A stretch of 61,132 bases of DNA, the filler included, from Sphacelaria rigidula (lineage: Eukaryota), in the NCBI GenBank assembly GCA_964200075.2. It is 7 parts of 7 records of this genome, joined end to end, with 100 filler letters (N's around TTAATTAATTAA, not from the genome) between each part and the next. Parts side by side here need not be neighbours in the genome. Positions count along the whole stretch, not along the records: positions 52,486 to 61,132 come from CAXNAA020010496.1; 6 more parts are not named here. The stretch is one strand, 5' to 3'. Below are positions 4,411 through 61,132 of the stretch, in pieces. The position numbers and the translations under genes are program-made. How positions within the stretch are numbered: position 1 is the first letter of the stretch; the number at the start of each line of letters is the position of its first letter. The notes beneath the pieces are model-generated. The model was not told where the DNA came from. It ran no database searches and worked only from the letters and a program-made list of their open reading frames with translations.

Positions 4411-4703
4411 CACGGGTGGCCACTGGGGTCTGTAACCTGGCCATTTTGGGACCTTATCCACCTTTGGTAAGGTCCGCGGATTGGGTAGACAACTGAGAAG
4501 CATTCGCACAGCATGGACAGGATCGAAACAAAACATGTCCCAGTCTATAGGCGAGTGACTCCCCTGTAGACTGGAACATGTTTTTTTTCGAACCTGTCCA
4601 TGCTGTGCGAATGCTCTTCAGTTGCCCACTTAATCCGCGGACCTTACCAAATGTGGATAAGGTCCCAAAAAGGCCAGGTTACAGATCCCAGTGGCCACCC
4701 GTG
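4411..4703. mobile_element. Palindromic MITE (293 bp), CACGGG...CCCGTG termini, 2-bp CG target duplication; possibly CMC (CACTA/Mirage/Chapaev) superfamily
   Basis: The two arms of about 145 bp are near-perfect reverse complements centred near 4557. CG flanks both ends (4409-4410 and 4704-4705). A second partial copy lies at 52486-52637. Confidence 0.85.
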
Positions 4704-7700
4704 CGTATCTGGCGTAGGCTATGATGAATTGGTGTTGGTACTGTCGATCCCAGGTGCTGTTGGTGCATCTTGGCCTGCAGCTTTCGTGTGCCGTATCGCT
4801 ACCTCTGCGTCATCCGTTTGGCACCAGTCCGCTACAAACCTTTCTGCTCCCTGTTCAACACAGCTGTGCCACTCTACTGCATTCAAGGCTCTGGTAGTCC
4901 ACCCCTGTCATTCGATATCGAATGCCTTCATATCTTCCGCTAGGCAGCGGATCTAGTCCTTGTGCCTGCCGTTAAACTCTTTTTTTTCGTCCCTTCACGA
5001 CTATGATAGCACCGAACATGACTTGTTCCGGTATCCGTCCGGGTGACATCCGCGTGACGAAACCGGCGAAACGGAGTCTCCTCCTCCTCTCCGTCGCCTC
5101 AATGCTTTCGCGCCCTGTCTTCGCGAGGGCCCCTCGGTATGACAGAACGTGGTCTGTCCGATTACGCTTGTGCCATCCAAGGCACCGCCTGAGCAATGCG
5201 TGGTGGGCCGTACGCAGTAGATTGGGGTGGCCGTTGAGAAGGGTCCATGTGACGCACCCGTACAGGAGCGCTTCGACAGCCTCGGCTTTGTTCATGCGGA
5301 TCTTGAGGTGGACGGCCGCGTTCGGTCGATTATACAGTTGGACTTTGTACTGGTGATAGTTCGCCCGTGCCCCTTGTACGCTCTTTTTGATTTCCACCGA
5401 GAGGTCACCGCTCTCCGAAGTTGACCCCCCAGGTATATAAAGCTGTATGTTTGTTCGTATACCTGGCCAGCCGCCTTGATGTCGAGATGCCCCGCCTGTG
5501 AGTGCAGTCGCATGGTTTTCGTCTTTGCTTCCAACACGGTCAACCCGAACTCTTCGCAGATCGTTACAGTCACGGTCATCGTTCTCTCGAGGCTCGATGA
5601 TGTCCGCGAGATGATGCAGACGTCATCGACGAACAGCATATTCCATAAGGATCGCACCTCCTCCGCCGCGATTGCTGTGGCCACGTCTGGCTCGACTCAT
5701 ACTACCGCACATTCGTGTGGGAAACTCCAAGGTTTGCGCTTTCGGACTTGCACCTGGTCCCTCGTGATGTCAGGGTCGTCGCGGAAGGTTGCTAGGGCCA
5801 CCGTGAGTACTGCCGTGAAGAACATGTTGAACAGCAGTGGTGCTAGCACGCATCCCTGTCGAAGGCCCTGGTCGATGTCGAACCATTCCGACTATTCCCC
5901 GTCGTTCGTGCGCACCGGAGCTTGCATACCATCGTGGAATTGGCGGATGGTCGAGAGCATGATGGGTGGGACGCCACAGCTTTCCAGAACTTTCCACAGT
6001 AATGGGCGGTCGGCAGAATCGTGTGCTTTCGTGAGGACGACGAAACACATGTAAAGCGGGATCTGTCGTCTCCGACCAAGTTCCTCGAGTCGTCGGACGG
6101 TGAACATCCTGTCGACGATTGAGCGTCCGGAGCGGAAGCCGCACTGCTCTTCAGGCAGCATTCCATTGCCCTCGCAGTGTGTGCTTAGGTGGCGGGCGAT
6201 TATCTTGAGGAGCACTTCGCCGGCGTGTGACACGCGTGAATTTCCTCTGTAGTTCCCGCATTCCGTGCGATCGCCCTTTTTGTGGAGCACGATGATGGTG
6301 GCATCCTTTCATTCGTGTGGTACGGCTGGTCCGCCCCGGATGTCAAGAATAATAGCGCAAAAGCTCTGTAGTCGGCTCATGTCGTCGCCGTCGAGGAGTA
6401 TCTTCAGCCGTTCAGCCGGCAGTTCATCCGGACCAGCGGTTTTTTCCGTTGGACGTAGATCGTATGGCATCCGCTCTCTCGTCTATCGTAGGCACCTCGT
6501 TTAGCGACGTGCTCAGAAGTCGCACCTGGAGTTGGTCGATGACTGCTGTACTGAGGCGGGGCGACTTGGTGTTGAGGAGAGTGTGAAACCACTGTACTCA
6601 CCGCGGGCGGATGAGCTTCGTCTCTGAGCAGTTGACCCTTGTTGTCGCGGATATATTTCTGCCGTGAGCTATATGGTTTCCTCCCTTCGACCTCGATTCC
6701 TTTCAGATGCCCGTAAAAACCGCGTTGGTCACCACTCGCGATGTGCGCTTCACGTCGGCTGACGTAGGTCTCGAACACTCTCTTCGCCGCATGTGCTCTA
6801 ACACGATGAAGTTCCTTGTTGGCTTTCTTCAAGACTTTCTTGAGGTTGGTGTCAGCGGGCGTTGACATCGATGCCCTCCGTGCCTTTTCCCTCGCCATCC
6901 ATGCAGTGTGGATTTTTGCCTTGGACTCGGCACTCGCGCACCAGCCGTGGGAGCCTCGTTGGTTTCCGTCGTGGGACGCAGTGTCTGCTGCGGCGGATAT
7001 CATCTTGGTGAGACCTGCAGCCATGTCTGCGGCAGTAGCATCTATAGACGAGGGATCGAGAGGGAAGGCCGTTTGTAACATCATTGCTCTCAACGTCGGG
7101 TCAGCCATCAGCCTTTCAAGGTCGGCCGTTCTGCGTAATGATGCTTGTTTCCGCATCTTGCGATTGTGCGTGGAGCGATCACGGAGCCGAACCTTTGAAG
7201 ATACAAGGTCATGGTCAGACTCTCGTTTTCCGGGTGGTGGGCGGCAGACGTAAATGTTGCGTACGAGTCTGTCTTGTGTGGATGTAGTCAAGGCGATAGC
7301 GTCCCTTCCCAGCATTGGAGCTTTGGAAAGTGGACGAGATGCCCCGCTTGGGTGTTCCGAAGAGCGTATTAAGCACAGTCAGGTGTTGCTCCTCTGCGAT
7401 GGCCAGATGCATCTCACCGTTATTGGTCAGTACGTCCCGCCCGTATTCGCCTAGTACCTTGCTATTATTCTCTCCACCCCCCCCCCATCGTTTTCCAGTG
7501 CGGGCGTTGGCATCCATCATGGCAAATTGATATTCCTTGCAAAGTACTTGTGAGACGGTATCAGATACGTCATCCCAAACCTTGGTCTTGTCGCGCAGCG
7601 GAGCGGTCTCCGACGGGGCATACGCAACCACAAATGATACTGCGTTGGGTTTGCCGTGTAGTTCAAGTTTCACCTTCACAAGTCGAGCACTGAGGTACTC

Positions 7701-8494
7701 GACTGTAGCACATTTTCCTCCCATCTCCATGATAGACACCTCGGTAGCGATCGCTACCCCATGTTGTCCCGCCCTTCCCTTAGCCTTGATTGTGTCACCA
7801 GAACAAAATACTGTGAATCCCGCCGCACTGAACACCGATTGATAATATCTCCTGGTTTCTTGCAACCCTACGATATCGCATCCCAGACTCTGACAAGGTT
7901 TCAGGACAATCTCACTGTGGCGAATGCCGCTCGCACCTTTGAAATCAAGCGTGCGAACATTGTAGGTGCCGACAGTAAGCTCACCGATCCTGGCCCTCGC
8001 CCTCGCAGTCTTTTCCCTCTTGTCGGCAGCCCTCCGATCTGCCGGTCTCCCACGCCTATTTTTCGTGCCGCGTGGTTTTTGTTTCTGCTGTGATTTTACA
8101 TGCAAGTATATATTTATGTTCCGAAATGGACACTTCTCCGTGCGTGCTTGTTATCTGACATGGTTTCGGGGGCAGCAGTCCCGACATGTCTCGACCGGTT
8201 CCACCACCGCATCGTTCATTGTGTTTACACACGTGTAGATACCTAGCAGCTCTACTCTCCTTGCTACGTATCCCACGCCTTCGGCGACGGTTACCTGGTG
8301 CCGCTGCCGCGGGCTATGTAGCCGCGGCAGAATTCGCCCCTGGGAAAAACTCCGTCGGGAAAAACCCGCCACATCAGGATTCAGTGCCGTCGTTATCGTC
8401 GAGTGTAAGCAGCAGATAGGGCAGCAAGACGGTTGCTACCCTATTACTTGCTGTTGTTACTACTACTGTTGACAATGACGCCTTTTCTACTCTT

Positions 8495-43638: not shown

Positions 43639-43738
43639 NNNNNNNNNNNNNNNNNNNNNNNNNNNNNNNNNNNNNNNNNNNNTTAATTAATTAANNNNNN
43701 NNNNNNNNNNNNNNNNNNNNNNNNNNNNNNNNNNNNNN
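43639..43738. other. Artificial contig linker
   Basis: N-TTAATTAATTAA-N, 100 bp. Confidence 0.98.
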
Positions 43739-52385: not shown

Positions 52386-52485
52386 NNNNNNNNNNNNNNN
52401 NNNNNNNNNNNNNNNNNNNNNNNNNNNNNTTAATTAATTAANNNNNNNNNNNNNNNNNNNNNNNNNNNNNNNNNNNNNNNNNNNN
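52386..52485. other. Artificial contig linker
   Basis: N-TTAATTAATTAA-N, 100 bp. Confidence 0.98.
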
Positions 52486-52637
52486 CGGGTGACTCCCCTG
52501 TAGACTGGAAGATGCTTTGTTCCGAACCTGTCCATGCTGTGCGAATGCTCTTCAGTTGTCTACCCAACCCGCGGACCTTGCCAAAGGTGGATAAGGTCCC
52601 AAAATGGCCAGGTTACAGACCCCAGTGGCCACCCGTG
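52486..52637. mobile_element. One arm of the palindromic CACGGG MITE (second copy; the contig breaks at the palindrome centre)
   Basis: Nearly identical to 4553-4703. Confidence 0.88.
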
Positions 52638-53679
52638 TTGTCATGAAATCAAAAGATGGGCCAAACCTGGTATTCAGGGGGACAGCCTCATCGTTTGGGG
52701 GGATAATCTCTCACGCCCTTTCCGATCATAGCGAGTGCTTTCGTATGTGCTATATCGTCCCGGGATCCTAGTTACACTGGGAACAGAAACCACTGAGAAA
52801 AAGTAAAAAAATATCCTCAGGTGGTAACGGCGCTTAGACACCCCTGATCGATCAAATCAATCCTGGGTAGTGTGAGACTCGTAAAAAGCTGACCCACTGA
52901 AAAAAAAACAATACGTTTGCTGACTGATGGGAGTGCGTAGGCTCTTCTCCCGTCGACCAGCAACCGCTGACCTACTGGACACCGGGGGCTCTTACATCTT
53001 AGATCAAGAGTTCAGTCATGATGCAGTGTCCAGGCAGGTACTCGGTGCCCACCCTTCGTGTACAATTCTAATTCTACGACATGATATTTTTTCTATAAAA
53101 GAGTGGGGCACCCTAAAGTCGGATCCGCATTCACGGAGACCAAAATAACAAAAAACATTAACCGGAACTAGGACTGACCACAGAGGGAAGAAAGAGGAAA
53201 AAAAGAAAAAGAAAAAAAGAAGAAAAAAAGCAATAGTACACAGCGAGGAAAAGGGCGCCGTAACTCCACATCCATTCGGGACAAGAAAACCAAGCTGTGA
53301 AGAAACAGAGGAGCCGCGTAGGCGCTATAGGACAAGAAAGGGCTACAGAAAACTAGCAAAAGTGGCTATGGAACCCACGGGAGACGAAAAAAACGGCTAA
53401 TACAACGAGATCCGTTCGCCAGAATATACATATAAAAATGAAAAGAGGGAAAAAGCACGAAGAAAGAAAGAGAAAAACAAACAAGAAACGCAAGAAACGA
53501 CTCGTACTTCCTTCCCAAACTATATACATATAAAAAGAAAAAAAAAGAAAACCGGAGACAACAAGATGTAGACTGCACCCTTCTCAAGGTACCGTGTTGA
53601 AGGGTTGATACTTTGTGCTTTGTCCCATCTAGTGTCCTTCTCTTTTTTTTTCTTTTTTTTTGTTTGATAACGCCGCTTC

Positions 53680-54125
53680 CTAGCTCGTGACTGCCGGTGT
53701 TGCCGTCTCGCTCAACTGCGCTAGCTGTTTCAGTTCTCTCCGTGACAACTCCTCCCAGTCCCCGTCGTCGTATCGTACTCTCCAGAAACGCTTGCCGTAG
53801 TCGAACACTTGTCCCTTCTGCTTGACCCCACTGAAATTTTTCGAGAACGTGAAACCTATGGGGAACAAGTTCAGGGCATCAATGCGTGACAGAGGGGCAT
53901 GGCGGATGCTCGGGCGAGATGGCGTACTTGGTGTCTTGGCCGGTTGGTAAAGGCACCACAGTGCGTGGAAGCCATCCAGTTGCAGAGGTGTGAAGCTTTC
54001 CAGGACTTCGCTCTCCGGAAGCCACTCTGACGTCGCCCCCTCCTGCGTCCCTCCTTGATACTCCCAACCTGCACTTCCTTTCCCCGATTTGCACTCGCGG
54101 TGGCTCACTATAGGGTAAGGAGGCG
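53680..54125 (-). pseudogene. Integrase C-terminal extension: chromo-like segment followed by a Tudor-like domain
   Basis: YPIVSHR...WEYQG...GATSEWLPESEVLESF, then FSKNFSGVKQKGQVFDYGKRFWRVRYDDGDWEELSRREL. Confidence 0.6.
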
Positions 54126-54154
54126 GGGTGTGGAATTAAGCGAAGACGCGATCC

Positions 54155-55324
54155 TCATGCACACTGGGCGAACTCGTCGGCGATGCAGTGTCTCAAGTGC
54201 AGCGGCCGTACATGGTACGGTTTGACATCAGACGGGGCTACTGTGCGAGTACGTAGTGTTCGTCCTTGCATCACTACCTCGAGACTGTGTCCGAACATCA
54301 GTACCTTTTTCACCGTCCAAGGTCCCGTATACCTGCCGTGCTGCAGCTTCCTGCCCCTGCCATCTCGATACGTGCAGCTTTCACTCTCCCTCACAATTAC
54401 CAGATCCCCTTCCGTGACCGACACGCCTGCTGATGGTCTCGAGATGGTTGCATTTTCCTTCTCCCGCGACGCTTCTTTTTCCCCCTGCCTTTTGTCCATC
54501 GCCATCCTTACCTAGTTCTGTCTGCGCTGTTCAACGAAGGCATCTAATCCCTTGCTCGGTTCTGCTTCTTGTGAGAGGGGCACGAGCGAGCCTAGCGATG
54601 TGCGCAGTTTGCGGCCGAACAGCAGCTCAAAAGAGGACATGTTAGAGGGGAGCGATGTGTCGGGCAATGTGCGCTTTATCCAGAGGGCGGGTGAGACAAA
54701 GTCATCCCACCTCTGGGGCCACAGCCTACATAGTTCCGATAGCATGTCCAACAGCCATCCCCCAAGTCGCTCGACCGCTCCCTGACCGCGTGGGTGGTCC
54801 GACGGCCCAAAGACGACATCCGCCTTAAACCACCTGCACAGATGCGTGACGACATCGGCCCTGAACTCTTTACCCCTGTCGCAGCGGATCATTTGTGGGA
54901 CACCAAAAGTTAGGCATAACTCTGCTAGGATGTGTGCGATCTCGTCCGCTTCCTTTGAATGCAGAGGAAACCCGAACGGGAATCGGGAGGCGCGGTCAAG
55001 TACCAGCAGAATGTACTTGTTGCGCGAGTGCGACATCACATCAATGGTTAGTAAGTCGATTTCCAACTCGGCCCATGGGTGTAGAGTGCGCCCCGGTCTC
55101 ATCGCCATTCAAGGGCTGGATGCCTTCTTGCATCGTCTACAGCTTCACGATAGCACATACTGTCTCGTGTCACGTGTCATCGTTGGCCAATGGAAGCGAT
55201 CGTGTATCAGAGCAAGGGTGGCGCCTACTCCGACATGTTCATGGAGTGCATGTACGAGTGCCAACAGGTCAGCTACCATCGTTTTCGGGACAACTAGCAG
55301 CTCCTTATCGCCGGCTGCTCGGTA
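54155..55324 (-). pseudogene. Gypsy integrase (zinc-binding and DDE core, with internal stops)
   Basis: VHALHEHVGV...RFHWPTM...SCRRC; LEIDLL, YILLVLDRASRF, IRCDRGKEF, GAVERL, SSFELLFGR, RYTGPWTV. Confidence 0.9.
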
Positions 55325-57247
55325 CTACAGTATAACTTGCTCGTCTACTTTGTAGTCTGATCGTCTCTCACTCACCGTCTCTGGTGTTTCGCTGCCTGCA
55401 AGATCTGACTGCACCTGTTTGAGAAATAAATCTTTTCGTTGGTGGTGCCGGAGATTGCTCACGTTGGTGAGTATCCGTAGTGCACGATCGATCGCCGTTG
55501 TTTCCGTCAAGTCCGAATCCGTTAACCCCGTAGGAATTTCTCCCCCGGCTAGGAGCACTTCATCCACTTCTACCCTTTCACCGGTTGTCGGCGGAATGAT
55601 CGGTGTCGGCACCTGTAGCGGTACTTCAATCGGCGTTGGCTCCACGAGCGGATTCGGGGCGACCACTTGAGGAGTGAAGGGCAGAGGTGTTGTATACACA
55701 GCATCGAGGGGTTGCAGGCGTACTGACGGTCTGCGAGTACGAGTCGAACGGCGCACAGGTTGGATATCGGTGATGACTGCGCATTTTGAGAAAGGGAGTA
55801 AACTCAGGGTGGCGATGTCCGGTGGATTGTTGGAATCCGACGATGAGTGCATACTTGTGTCTGAGCTCACTGACGTACCCGCTCCTTCTGGTTGTAGTTC
55901 CGACAGTCGTTGTCCCGCGAGTTGTGATCCCTGTGGGCCTACAAATTCTGTCGGCGAGCCCGACGTGAAATTATCCGAAAAGGAGTCATCAACGTCGGGC
56001 TGTGGCTCACTCGCGTGTGGGAGTCGGGACAATGCATCTGGCAGCACATGTTGGGACCCCTCCCGCCACTGGACGTCGATGTCAGACTCCATTAGCCGCA
56101 AGGCCCCCCTGTGTAACTTGGGGCAGAGATCGCGGCTACGGAGCAACCATATGAGTGCCGAACAGTCCGTGATCAACGTGAACCTTCTTCCAGCTAAGTA
56201 TGGTCTATAGTGTTGGACAGCCCACAAGACAGCCATGCTCTCACGTGGTGTGGGTGCTCTGCGCGAGTCGTTACGAGAGAATCGATGGCTGCTAAATGAT
56301 ACGATACGTGTTTCGCACCCCACCGGCTGCAGCAGCACCGCCCCAGCCCCCACCTCGCTCGCGTCTGTCTGCAGTATACATGAGTTGTGGGGATCGGGGA
56401 AGGCTAGTACCTTCGGCGAGGACAAGGCCGCTTTGAGGGCTTGGGACACCTCTTCCTGCTCGGTATTCCACGGTATGCACAGCATTCGTGCACGCTTGGA
56501 TGCGAAATCTTTGTTGCGGAGCAGGTTGGTTAGTGGGGCGGCTACTAGGCTGTATTTCTCAACAAGCTGGCGCAGGTACCCTGTGAGGCCGAGGAAAGTG
56601 CGTAATTCCTCGACGGTGGATGGTCTGGGCATTTCGGCGATGGCGGCGAGCTTGGATGGCGTGGGTTGAAGGCCATTGCTATCTACCAGCATGCCCAGAA
56701 ACTCTTGCGACGCCGATGCAAAAATGCACTTGCCGAAGTTCACCGAGAATCCTGCGACCAACCAGCGTTGTAAGACGATCACGAAGAGAGCTAGATGCTC
56801 GTCCCAGGATGTGGTCGCTACGAGAATATCGTCAAGCCAAGTGAACATCCCATCCAACTGTCCTACCGTACGTCTTACCCGACGGGTGAACGCGGCGGGT
56901 AGAACTGTTAGACCAAAGCCTGCTCGTGTAAACTCGTATAAGAGGCCATCTGCATCTCGGAAGACCGATATGAAGCGATCTTTCTCCGCGATCTCGATTT
57001 GGTGGAAACCGGAGGCCAGGTCGAGTTGGGTGAAGAAAAGCTTACCTTTGAGGCCGTCGAAAATGGATTGCATATCCCCGAGACCCCCACTGTCCGACAC
57101 TAAGAGTTTGTTCAGTTCACGCCAATCAATGCACAAGCGCAACGTGCCGTCATTTTTCTTCACGTATGGGCATTGGGCTGCCCACGGGGAGGTTGAGGGT
57201 CGAATGGTCCCGCGATCAAGAAGCTTGTGTATTTCTTCGCGGATCAT
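55325..57247 (-). pseudogene. Gypsy reverse transcriptase and RNase H plus a long linker
   Basis: IRPSTSPWA, VKKNDGTLRLCIDWRELN, LDLASGFHQI, WLDDIL, FLGLTGYLR, LQTDASEVGAGAVLLQ, FTLITDCSAL, DALSRL. Confidence 0.95.
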
Positions 57248-57840
57248 GTGCTATCATACGCGTGACCGTGCCAGTAGGCTTCACCGCTACTTGCTCCTTA
57301 CTTCTATTTACAAGTTTGCAATACACCGGCGACCCCGGCTGCCACCACGACACTCCCTTCGCGATCCTCACCTCTGCCCCCTTGTCCAGATCGAACTTTG
57401 CCTGTGGGAGTACAAGCAGAAGCTGCCTATCCTGTGGTTGAGGACTGATCGCGGCTGCCTCTACCGCGGCGCTGACGAAGCCGCTGAGCATGATCGTTTG
57501 TCCGATTAAGCGCAGCTTCCACTCTAGCGTGTTATCGTCTTCCCAAGCTACGTCATGGTAGCTGGGGTAGTTGTGGATGGACGGACAAGCGGGCGTAGCT
57601 AGGGAGGCGGTGGTTTCCATCGCGGTGTACAGAGCTACTAATATATCTTGAATGTGGTAGGAAAGATTTTCGCTCGTCAGGAACGGGATCCGCGGTGCTG
57701 CTGGCGAGGGCCGAACCCTTTTGCTGGGGCGAAATCTAGGATACTGTTATTGTACCGGAAATATTCTGCACCTAAATTGAAGCCGTACGGCAGGCCCTCC
57801 ACTACTCGTACTGTTACATTACGGACCCGTGAGTCGGGGG

Positions 57841-58029
57841 TCAAAAGCAAGGACACGGTAAAGAACCGATTATACGCATTGGGGGGACCTTACTCTGGGA
57901 TGAGTAAGCTGCACAGAGAACACCTGCCGCCTCCGGGTTTGGCGTATCGTCCAAGATGTTGGCCTCGCGTAAGCCGCGCCATAACGCTCCTGGCATATAG
58001 TTGCCACCTCCCGCTCCCGTGTCCAACAA
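57841..58029 (-). pseudogene. Gypsy aspartic protease fragment
   Basis: LLDTGAG motif upstream of the RT. Confidence 0.65.
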
Positions 58030-58446
58030 GACTTCTATCGGCCCCGGCCGACGGAGATGCCGTCGGTGTCAGATCTCGCCCGTCACCCAAAGTTGGCTTC
58101 CTCGACGTTGGGTTATTGTGGTGGCGCTGGGTCGGCGAAGGTTCCCCAGGTCAATTGCACCTGGGGCGTGTCTTCACGCGTCGGCTCGAGTGTCGCGGGC
58201 GGCGGCCTCGCTCACGGATGCGTTTAGCACATCCTCCCCGTCGTCGTCATCGTCGTCGTCGTCTTCGCCGATGAGACCCAGGTCGATTGCCGCCAAGTAT
58301 TGTGCCTCCGTGAGCGCGGCTAGCCGACGTTGGGGGGTGGCCATCTTGCGGCGGGCCGTTAGGCCGCTGTAGTGTGCGGCCGGAATGATACCGTGCGTCC
58401 AGGGACAAGGGTTGTTGCCCCGGTGACGGCACGAGCCGGTGAATGC

Positions 58447-60730
58447 CTAAGCGAAGCAAGTTTTACGATCACGTAAAATGGTAACCACTGCGTCGCGTCC
58501 CGCCGCAATCAGCTGTATGGATGGCTCGGGAGTCGAGGCCGGACCAACTGGCTGGGCGGATGTGGCGGGAGTCGGTGATGGCAAAGTGCTCCCAGACGGC
58601 GGTGCCGGGAGTTTGTGCTGCATATCTGCCGCGCGGGTTGCGGCGGCATGCCCCGGAGTCGTGGCGCGAGGACCGGGGTTGATGAGTGTCGAACCTTGCT
58701 GCATGAAGAGCACGCCGTATGAGCCCGGTGAGGCCGCCAGGTGGTTGTTGAACGCCGCGACGGAAGGTACTGCCGAGTGGTGGCCGACTAACACCTGGGG
58801 TCTAGAGGATGCAGCGGGGTCTGACAGGGCGGGCGGCACTTCGAGGAAGAGAGGTGACCCCGGGTTAGTTTGCTGGAGCATTACGGCGACCTCCGAGGGC
58901 GACTGTAGCAAGTTCCGTACTTCCTCAAGTGAAAATAATCTGTCAGGTCCCGCGCCGCGGTTGCTAGTACGCGGTTGGGGGCGGGCGTGACTGTCGTCGC
59001 TGTATGCCACGTTGCGGGCGCACACGATACGTATGAAGTCCTCGTAAAGACTCTTGGCTACGTCTCCCCTTCTTTGCATTGCTAACCCCATCGGATTGTG
59101 CCACTCGCTCCTCACAGGCTGCAGCCTGGCCCAGATTGCGTGTTTCTTTTCATGGAGGATCGACACTAGACCTAGTCTATTGAGTGGGTTAGGTAGCATG
59201 ACTCGGATAATACGATTGTAAAGCTCGCTTAGCTGCCGGGCGGTGATAAATCGCCAGAAGTACGTGGCTTCGGTATCGTATGGTCTGAGTTTGGTAAACT
59301 CGCGCGAAATGCCAGCAACACCCGTTGCGCCCCCACACTCCACGACTCGTTGGGACCTAAGGTGATGGAGTCTAGTGCAGCGTGTATAAACTGATTGGCC
59401 CCGTTCGTCATCACTTCTTCACGGACGAGGATCCGTAGCCAGCCGGTTATAGTAGCGGATTCATGTGGGACGGTGTCGCTTTCGCCCGTGATACGATACA
59501 CATCTACTCGATCCGCTACGGTTAGGGACGTAAACGTACCACTGGTTTCTGCCAGCAACTCGATTAGGAGGTCGCGCCGGCGGGCGGAGTACTGATCTGT
59601 CTGTGTTACCCACTCACCGTTAACGTTTTCATCCTCCGGCATTTTCAAAACTCCCTGGTCCATTGCACGCAGCGTCGACCATATCTGGTGTTGCAGCACA
59701 ACAGCGCTGTGGACAACCGATAGTTCCCCGGCACTTGGTCCTGCGTACACTGGGCATGGTCGACCGCGCGTGATACGCCTGCGTGCCAGTTCGCTCACCT
59801 TCGCCAGCTGGTTAGATTCCAGACCTTGAACCGCAGCTCCAGCTGCTGCTCCTGGTGCTTCACAACCCCAGCGCCTTAGCCAACCGGCATCCGCCTGCTG
59901 CTGGTACGCCCTGTGCTCCTCCCGGTGGTGGTGACGTTCCCGGGACCCCCACCTAATGGCATTGTGTTGACGCCTGCTGCGGGAGGGCGAGCGAGAGTTT
60001 CGGCGGTAGCGGCGGCGGCGAGAGCGAAAGCGGGAGCGAGAGCGGGAGCGGGGGCAGGAGCGGGGGCGGCGGGGGCGAGAGCGAGAACGGCGCTCTGCCC
60101 GTGAACGGGAGCGAGAGCGGTGGCGGCTCCGAGAGCGGGAAGTCGAGAGTCTGGTGTCTCCGTTGTCCTGCCTGTGGTGCGTCGATGGGGAGCGACGGTC
60201 GAGATCCTCGTGGCTTCTGTGGTGCACGGTGCAGGGGGGGAGCGCCCGGGGGTCGAGATCCCCGGCAGCGCCACCGCCACTGCCGCTCCCTTGGATGCGG
60301 GGAGCACGCCGCTGCGTAGGTGATAGGGGTGACGGGGCGCAGCAGCCCCTAGATTACCTGCTCGACCTGTTGATGGGCGGTGGGGGTCGCTGCCGACTCT
60401 TTCTACGATAGCCCCCCCCCAAAACGTGCATGGTTTTGGGAGGCAAAATTTTCACGTAAATCGAAATGGGAAAAGCCAAGCACAACGAGAAGCCGGGAAT
60501 TCCCATGCTTGGGTTCGGTCTAGCCAATGTCGCCAATATGAGGCGCTTCATGCAGCCTGAACCCGATCATCAGGAGCTGTATGGCTATTTTTTTCTGTGA
60601 CACTTTTCGCTGGTTTTTTGGGGGGGGGGCTACCGTAGAAAATGTCTGCCCTGCAGATTGTTTGCAGAGGCGGCGTTGGTGCTGCTACCTTGGTTATCGT
60701 AGTGGCTATTGGGAGCAGATATCTCTATCA
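58447..60730 (-). pseudogene. Gag-like ORF of the Gypsy element (frameshifted, MITE-interrupted, RS-rich)
   Basis: Long overlapping ORFs (59229-60227, 58447-59343) directly upstream of the protease; assigned by position only. Confidence 0.6.
60406..60635. mobile_element. Tc1/mariner-type MITE (230 bp, TA TSD) inserted in the gag-like ORF
   Basis: TIRs cgatagcccccccccaaaa and ttttggggggggggctaccg. TA at 60404-60405 and 60636-60637. Removing it restores an open frame. Confidence 0.8.
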
Positions 60731-60894
60731 ATCGTCGAAGAGCAGCACGTGATAACGGGCGGAGGTAGCGAAACACGAGTAAGTAGTGAGGAAAAATCAA
60801 AATAAGAATGGTAATGAGACACGCATGGGTGTCCGCACATGCGAGATGGCGATGAGGGAGGAAGTCCCCGGTCATCGACATGGTATGGTGTGAC

Positions 60895-61132
60895 GAGTGA
60901 TGCTACGATAGGGGTGCACAAATATTCCCTGAGGTTTGAATTGTTAGGAACCCTTTATCTCATGCAAAATGCGACCTATGAAAATATGTGAGAGTACGCC
61001 AGGATTACTACTCCAATGTGCTGGGAATATCCCGAATGATTTTGCAAACGGGGATGTCCTGACCCATATTTTTTTGCATCTTGAATCGTGAGGGGCCCCT
61101 GAACTAGACATAATTTCGCGAAAAAAGTGCAT
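60895..61132. mobile_element. Second copy of the Sola-like MITE (inverted, truncated by the window end)
   Basis: Reverse-complement match to 40214-40470. Confidence 0.85.

Follow-up and report, generated by a model that had tools for sequence, protein, structure and literature searches.

A chromodomain-like module predicted ahead of the Tudor domain in the integrase tail of a decayed brown-algal-type Ty3/Gypsy element

We analyzed a 61,132-nucleotide stretch of DNA from Sphacelaria rigidula (GenBank assembly GCA_964200075.2; "the window" below means this whole stretch), whose minus strand carries a decayed Ty3/Gypsy element at 53680–61132, on the contig that occupies 52486–61132. The Pol polyprotein of this lineage ends in a tail of two modules, the first with a predicted chromodomain fold that lacks aromatic cage residues 1 and 3 and the second a PTM/DIR17-type Tudor domain. 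Fusion of a Tudor domain to a Gypsy element has already been published; the cage-less chromodomain ahead of it appears to be new. For a decayed element of this brown-algal type, we lean toward a reading in which the integrase tail tethers the integration complex to chromatin, with the chromo module as a protein surface and the Tudor domain as a possible mark reader. The Pol order of reverse transcriptase (RT), RNase H, and integrase is that of Ty3/Gypsy elements (Metaviridae), and the window copy is laid out as follows.

52640–53679, minus strand: 3′ noncoding part, from comparison with sister copies
53680–53682, minus strand: Pol stop codon, directly after the Tudor domain
53707–53895, minus strand: PTM/DIR17-type Tudor domain with a short N-terminal helix, the last Pol domain (Pfam PF21743 match at about 53725–53853)
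53896–53940, minus strand: Pro/Ser-rich linker, with conserved spacing and the highest ratio of nonsynonymous to synonymous substitution rates (dN/dS) among the regions compared
53941–54130, minus strand: module of predicted chromodomain fold, group II- or chromoshadow-like, without cage aromatics 1 and 3 (AlphaFold 2 [AF2] model, structure ranking, and cage counts)
54203–54427, minus strand: ordinary SH3-like integrase C-terminal domain (CTD) with the GPW (GPY/F) motif, from structure matches
54800–55066, minus strand: integrase catalytic core (Pfam rve, E = 2.2e-10)
56087–57163, minus strand: RT and RNase H (Pfam RVT_1, RT_RNaseH, and RT_RNaseH_2)
57237–57850, minus strand: N-terminal Pol region, protease side, frameshifted (tblastn with the full-length relative P0002)
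57851–61132, minus strand: 5′ internal region with open reading frames (ORFs) at the gag position, 80 to 92% identical to sister copies

The original prediction, made from the sequence alone, described a Gypsy integrase ending in a chromo-like and Tudor-like tandem. The rve match and the Pol order bear out the Gypsy integrase, and the minus-strand frame 53683–54135 does read a chromo-like stretch, a Pro/Ser linker, and then ...WRVRYDDGDWEEL at the place given. The integrase core and GPW motif said to precede the tail are both there, but in other frames: damage falls between core and tail (stops near 54155 and 54513, a 13-base gap near 54148, and two extra bases near 54109), and because the copy is broken, the GPW motif and core are out of frame with the tail. 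The frameshift near 54109 also puts the first strand of the chromo-like module out of frame, and the window copy is unable to make the two-module protein. The Y-x-I with which the proposed chromo motif began depends on the two extra bases, placed by comparison with the sister copy L035 (90% identical), and is a frameshift artifact; sister copies read L-L-T-L-V-N/D-R-R at this position, and copies without the extra bases are also present in the contigs of 4/4 runs. The remaining motif (x-R...WEY-x-G...W-x2-E) is conserved. No gag domain was matched in 57851–61132 by the Pfam scan, and the contig ends before any 5′ long terminal repeat (LTR). Position 52639 was considered as the 3′ end of the element and rejected: the window copy is truncated at 52639/52640, and sister copies continue for a further ∼580 to 617 bases, up to their LTR end.

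In other, unbroken copies the tail is continuous with the integrase, as the prediction of an in-frame fusion implied. Four of the nine long own-genome ORFs scanned (L031, L032, L035, and L036) carry the zinc finger, core, and Tudor domain in one frame, the remainder holding other Pol parts or stopping early, and five database proteins of 1521 to 2024 amino acids encode an unbroken RT-RNase H-integrase-Tudor series, with Tudor scores of 14 to 26 bits, under the cut-off. The S. rigidula genome holds 151 matches (598 candidates, 150 scored), distributed over at least 4 subfamilies, and a profile of the tail detected 676 proteins (E ≤ 0.001) in a library of 1.84 billion (best 150 listed), so the tail is not a chance arrangement; the named relatives, 4 of the 20 proteins looked up, come from two brown algae, Nemacystus decipiens and Cladosiphon okamuranus. 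Among 176 proteins, 118 combine the two modules, 46 show the chromo-like one alone, 10 show only the Tudor domain, and 2 show neither; near-duplicates are counted, and the count is circular in part. Most of the 46 end or lose frame soon past the module, and the 10 comprise 4 multi-Tudor host-like proteins and, for the rest, mostly fragments. The linker spans 15 to 22 residues in 116 of the 118 proteins with both modules. Pooled pairwise dN/dS values from 13 hand-picked stop-free copies, whose pairs are nonindependent and saturated when distant, all lie below 1 (chromo module, 0.39, 0.19, and 0.06; Tudor domain, 0.30 and 0.19; linker, 0.68, 0.49, and 0.26), and by this measure both modules look constrained.

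Sister copies share an LTR end in 25 of 38 flanks, with LTRs ending in CA and a primer-site-like TGGTG next in 5 of the 25; the window copy has neither end. Searches located neither the LTR start nor the polypurine tract. At least one copy is young, since the 189-bp 5′ remnant at G000:C4477 is 99.5% identical to the 3′ end of the same copy. On the contig G000:C1886 (L035, L138, and L169), two copies lie head to tail ∼10.7 kb apart, the LTR end of the first directly adjoined by primer-site-like sequence, which suggests tandem elements with one common LTR.

The chromodomain assignment of the first module comes from structure prediction. The AF2 model of L035 gives the module a predicted local distance difference test (pLDDT) score of 91.4 and folds it as a three-stranded sheet with a C-terminal helix, and a structure search returned chromo-family domains at ranks 1 to 37, consecutively, before the first unrelated fold, led by the H3K9me3-binding domains of Oxpecker and SUV39H1. 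A chromo-family fold upstream of the Tudor domain is thus predicted, as originally proposed. At the sequence level no such link was found: Pfam Chromo (PF00385) does not match the module in the window, own-genome ORFs, database proteins, or aligned rows, phmmer and hmmsearch against the PDB gave no connection to chromodomains, and neither did hhalign against 15 own-genome chromodomains, for which the alignments were shallow. This silence, together with identities of 4 to 19% across ranks 1 to 37, would suit a convergent three-strand, two-helix fold of 60 residues that serves as a structural spacer without chromodomain descent, leaving only the Tudor domain to matter. We consider such convergence very improbable in view of the 37 consecutive chromo-family rows and the position of the module directly past the GPY/F CTD, where the Pfam-positive Gypsy chromodomains of this genome also lie; deep relatives, moreover, read L-E-R-I-V-D-R-R and Y-Q-V-R-W, which we take to be close to the chromo pattern. 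As Pfam overlooks this module, comparable domains may be present unnoticed in further integrase tails.

The predicted chromodomain does not have the cage of a methyl-lysine reader. The cage register was set from the HP1 range of the structure match, with Y24 named in its title, and from the general HP1 residue numbering for the other two cage positions. Sites 1, 2, and 3 are aromatic in 0/75, 50/84, and 1/84 rows, respectively, and at least two canonical aromatics occur in 0/84 rows (2/84 if a one-residue shift is allowed); site 2 is Thr in the window subfamily. The module thus lacks the full set of three aromatics of group I, methyl-lysine-reading chromodomains and, with cage aromatics 1 and 3 missing and the predicted fold kept, resembles group II, an assignment that is one of pattern and separate from common descent. 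Its most conserved residues lie outside the cage (D-R, S-x-W-x2-E, and L-D-x-F-H). Chromoshadow domains are homodimers that bind a PxVxL-type motif; a homodimer prediction for the module gave no answer (score 0.00, with no alignment used and the controls unfolded).

The Tudor domain is firmer at the sequence level, with Pfam PTM_DIR17_Tudor (PF21743) matching residues 95 to 137 at E = 2.1e-8 and 34.2 bits, above the curated cut-off of 27.2, in agreement with the original prediction. The family matches 38 of 90 aligned rows at E ≤ 10, and the L035 model has a helix, four strands, and a helix here at pLDDT 93 to 97. Neither the Tudor alignment nor a host Tudor protein retrieved anything meaningful from the PDB by sequence. 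Structure searches with a three-domain model gave matches confined to about residues 1 to 76, covering neither tail module; residues 1 to 75 match SH3-like barrels, including the murine leukemia virus (MLV), Rous sarcoma virus (RSV), and prototype foamy virus (PFV) integrase CTDs. The Tudor cage positions, assigned by analogy with Tudor structures, read F-Q-Y in the window subfamily, short of three aromatics, and the full cage is present in 7 of the 32 pattern-readable rows (of 90), including L031 and L032. The element profile also matched host proteins with three to six PF21743-type repeats, and host proteins with this Tudor family include the bromodomain protein P0136. The second cage aromatic is kept in 11/12 host repeats versus 9/34 element Tudors, and a W after DGD occurs in 29/34 element Tudors versus 0/12 host repeats.

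With neither cage complete in the window subfamily, the two reader modules of the original prediction are doubtful in the methyl-lysine sense. If both modules read histone marks, such as H4K20me3, H3K79me2, or methylated H3K4/K36, the chromo module would do so through a rebuilt pocket; the closeness of its predicted fold to H3K9me3-binding domains, its conserved aromatics (W21, Y23, W35, F53, and W57), and the tightly kept linker would fit such a true dual reader. We nevertheless think a dual reader unlikely, given the near-absence of paired cage aromatics and the Thr at site 2; in addition, the Ectocarpus background invoked by the prediction is stated in the literature, with negligible 5-methylcytosine (5mC) and neither H3K27me3 nor H3K9me (PMC12477816). 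The predicted cage-less chromodomain corrects how the Tudor lineage has been seen, and it tells against a plain dual reader of methyl-lysine.

In the tethering model that we prefer, the two-module tail would likely anchor the integration complex on chromatin, thereby biasing the insertion sites of new copies. As it lacks cage sites 1 and 3, the chromo module likely works as a surface for a chromatin protein, like plant group II or chromoshadow domains, and not as a methyl-lysine pocket. Of the two modules, the Tudor domain would be more likely to read a methylated residue, and its specificity likely varies because the cage is full in some subfamilies and reduced to F-Q-Y in that of the window. 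We infer this division of labor and, by analogy, the targeting role itself. A less probable though still credible alternative is that the tail binds nucleic acid or other integrase subunits, to capture target or nucleosomal DNA or to assemble the intasome, without directing insertion to any mark. In its favor, neither cage is complete in most rows, and the most conserved residues, the W after DGD among them, lie outside the cages; the structure matches also include the chromodomains of cpSRP43, GEN1, and eEF3, which have non-histone functions. The insertion flanks are likewise patternless: none of the 25 LTR-end flanks has a tRNA gene (0/25) and no clear sequence preference emerged, in a fragmented assembly. 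Against it stand the full cage kept in some element Tudors, the bromodomain protein among the host proteins with the same Tudor family, and the report that plant PDS5C/MSH6 Tudors bind H3K4me1 (bioRxiv 10.1101/2022.05.28.493846).

Related branches carry further domains. A sister subfamily (L031, L032, L033, L036, L041, and L044; P0004, P0005, and P0157, the last from Cladosiphon) has a C5-DNA-methyltransferase-like domain of ∼300 amino acids between RNase H and integrase that is absent from the window subfamily. Three instances lie as follows.

L032:1248–1907, plus strand: methyltransferase-like domain
L031:3384–4319, minus strand: methyltransferase-like domain
P0005, residues 940–1245: methyltransferase-like domain

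The motif order is that of C5-methyltransferases. ESM Atlas labels 30/30 matches DNA_methylase (best, 0.95), there is no Pfam match, PDB matches are weak (DNMT2 at E = 1.5), and the own genome (G000) holds 153 fragmentary matches. The own-genome copies aligned have no Cys at the candidate catalytic position, and motif IV otherwise reads A-C instead of P-C. The domain is noteworthy in light of the negligible 5mC reported for Ectocarpus (PMC12477816). KnitGypsy-Dnmt3 of Klebsormidium (PMC5890265) resembles this sister subfamily only, with a C5-methyltransferase-like domain inside Gypsy Pol; the sister subfamily differs in having the domain between RNase H and integrase, in its altered motifs, and in its occurrence in brown algae, and the text searched of that paper mentions neither "brown alga" nor "stramenopile." Residues 1 to 290 of P0173, a Pol of 2450 residues, precede the protease and look methyltransferase-like, bearing P-C and E-N-V motifs; again there is no Pfam match. 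In a deep branch, the Tudor domain is followed by a third conserved domain of ∼80 amino acids, with a beta-barrel-like pattern (9 proteins aligned), at the C termini of P0094, P0101, P0107, P0117, P0118, P0119, P0123, P0139, P0145, P0173, and P0175; its single faint match, in one protein, is to the PcrA/UvrD tudor domain.

More speculatively, this could be an old, widespread Gypsy lineage with a modular Pol chromatin toolkit: every member would carry the cage-less chromo module and the Tudor domain, the deep branch a third barrel, and some branches, including those of brown algae in which 5mC is reportedly close to nil, a C5-DNA-methyltransferase-like domain. By combining surfaces in a new way, the tail would recognize a chromatin state of brown algae, be it H3K79me2, H4K20me3, or a partner other than a histone. 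If so, these elements would be ready-made probes of chromatin recognition where H3K9me, H3K27me3, and DNA methylation are lacking.

Elsewhere in the window, the 5′ region of the element is rearranged at 60394–60894 relative to sister copies, in which ∼250 bases are absent or inverted. A repeat of ∼150 bases at 52489–52637 has two further copies, in opposite orientations, at 4411–4703. Runs of N with a TTAATTAATTAA spacer occupy 43639–43738 and 52386–52485, and 7218–8150 (minus strand) has a weak endonuclease/exonuclease/phosphatase match (E = 0.0024, under the cut-off), possibly a LINE remnant.

Silencing and placement of brown-algal transposons are described as largely unknown, 5mC being negligible and H3K9me and H3K27me3 absent (PMC12477816). 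If the fold prediction holds, the Tudor lineage has chromo and Tudor modules in tandem, the Tudor domain was probably gained downstream of a diverged chromodomain, and chromodomains of a group II-like type are not confined to plants and Dictyostelium. The natural differences among subfamilies in Tudor cage completeness allow insertion patterns to be compared directly with the capacity to read marks.

The closest known system is Gypsy-10_Ec32 of Ectocarpus sp. 7, reported as the first transposable element with a Tudor domain and with a Tribonema homolog (Dinatale et al. 2025, PMC12477816). It too has a Gypsy Pol with a C-terminal Tudor domain, and its internal part plus one LTR measures 11,528 − 636 = 10,892 bp, versus ∼10,890 bp at G000:C4477; by architecture and length, the bases of this comparison, the two probably belong to the same lineage. 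That paper places the Ectocarpus lineages outside the chromoviruses and Chronos clades and sees the Tudor lineage as an alternative to three chromodomain lineages; its text description names no chromodomain in Gypsy-10_Ec32, whereas one is predicted here. A chromo-plus-Tudor integrase was likewise undescribed in the titles and abstract openings found by literature search, which left most subscription papers outside its scope (further references on the subject are bioRxiv 10.64898/2025.12.07.692804, bioRxiv 10.1101/2021.11.30.470311, and PMC6338049). Group II chromodomains (CHD_II) of plant chromoviruses and Dictyostelium Skipper-2 share with our module the position after the GPY/F motif, the loss of cage aromatics 1 and 3, and a chromoshadow-like character, and are reported to tether without histone marks (PMC5006619). 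Unlike them, our module is invisible to Pfam Chromo and is followed by a Tudor domain, and the lineage has no tRNA-gene association in the flanks. ECR-1 and other brown-algal chromodomain Gypsy elements also fuse a chromodomain to integrase, and ECR-1 keeps all three cage aromatics (PMC11541908), in contrast to the module described here. In S. rigidula itself, L052 to L078 belong to distinct Gypsy lineages, whose Pfam-positive chromodomains likewise follow the GPW motif and which lie on a distant branch of an integrase tree built from a reduced row set without named references. The element Tudor, finally, shares Pfam family PF21743, above cut-off, with PTM/DIR17-like and PDS5C/MSH6 Tudors, and differs from host repeats of that family in having mostly lost the second cage aromatic and in the W after DGD found only in the elements.
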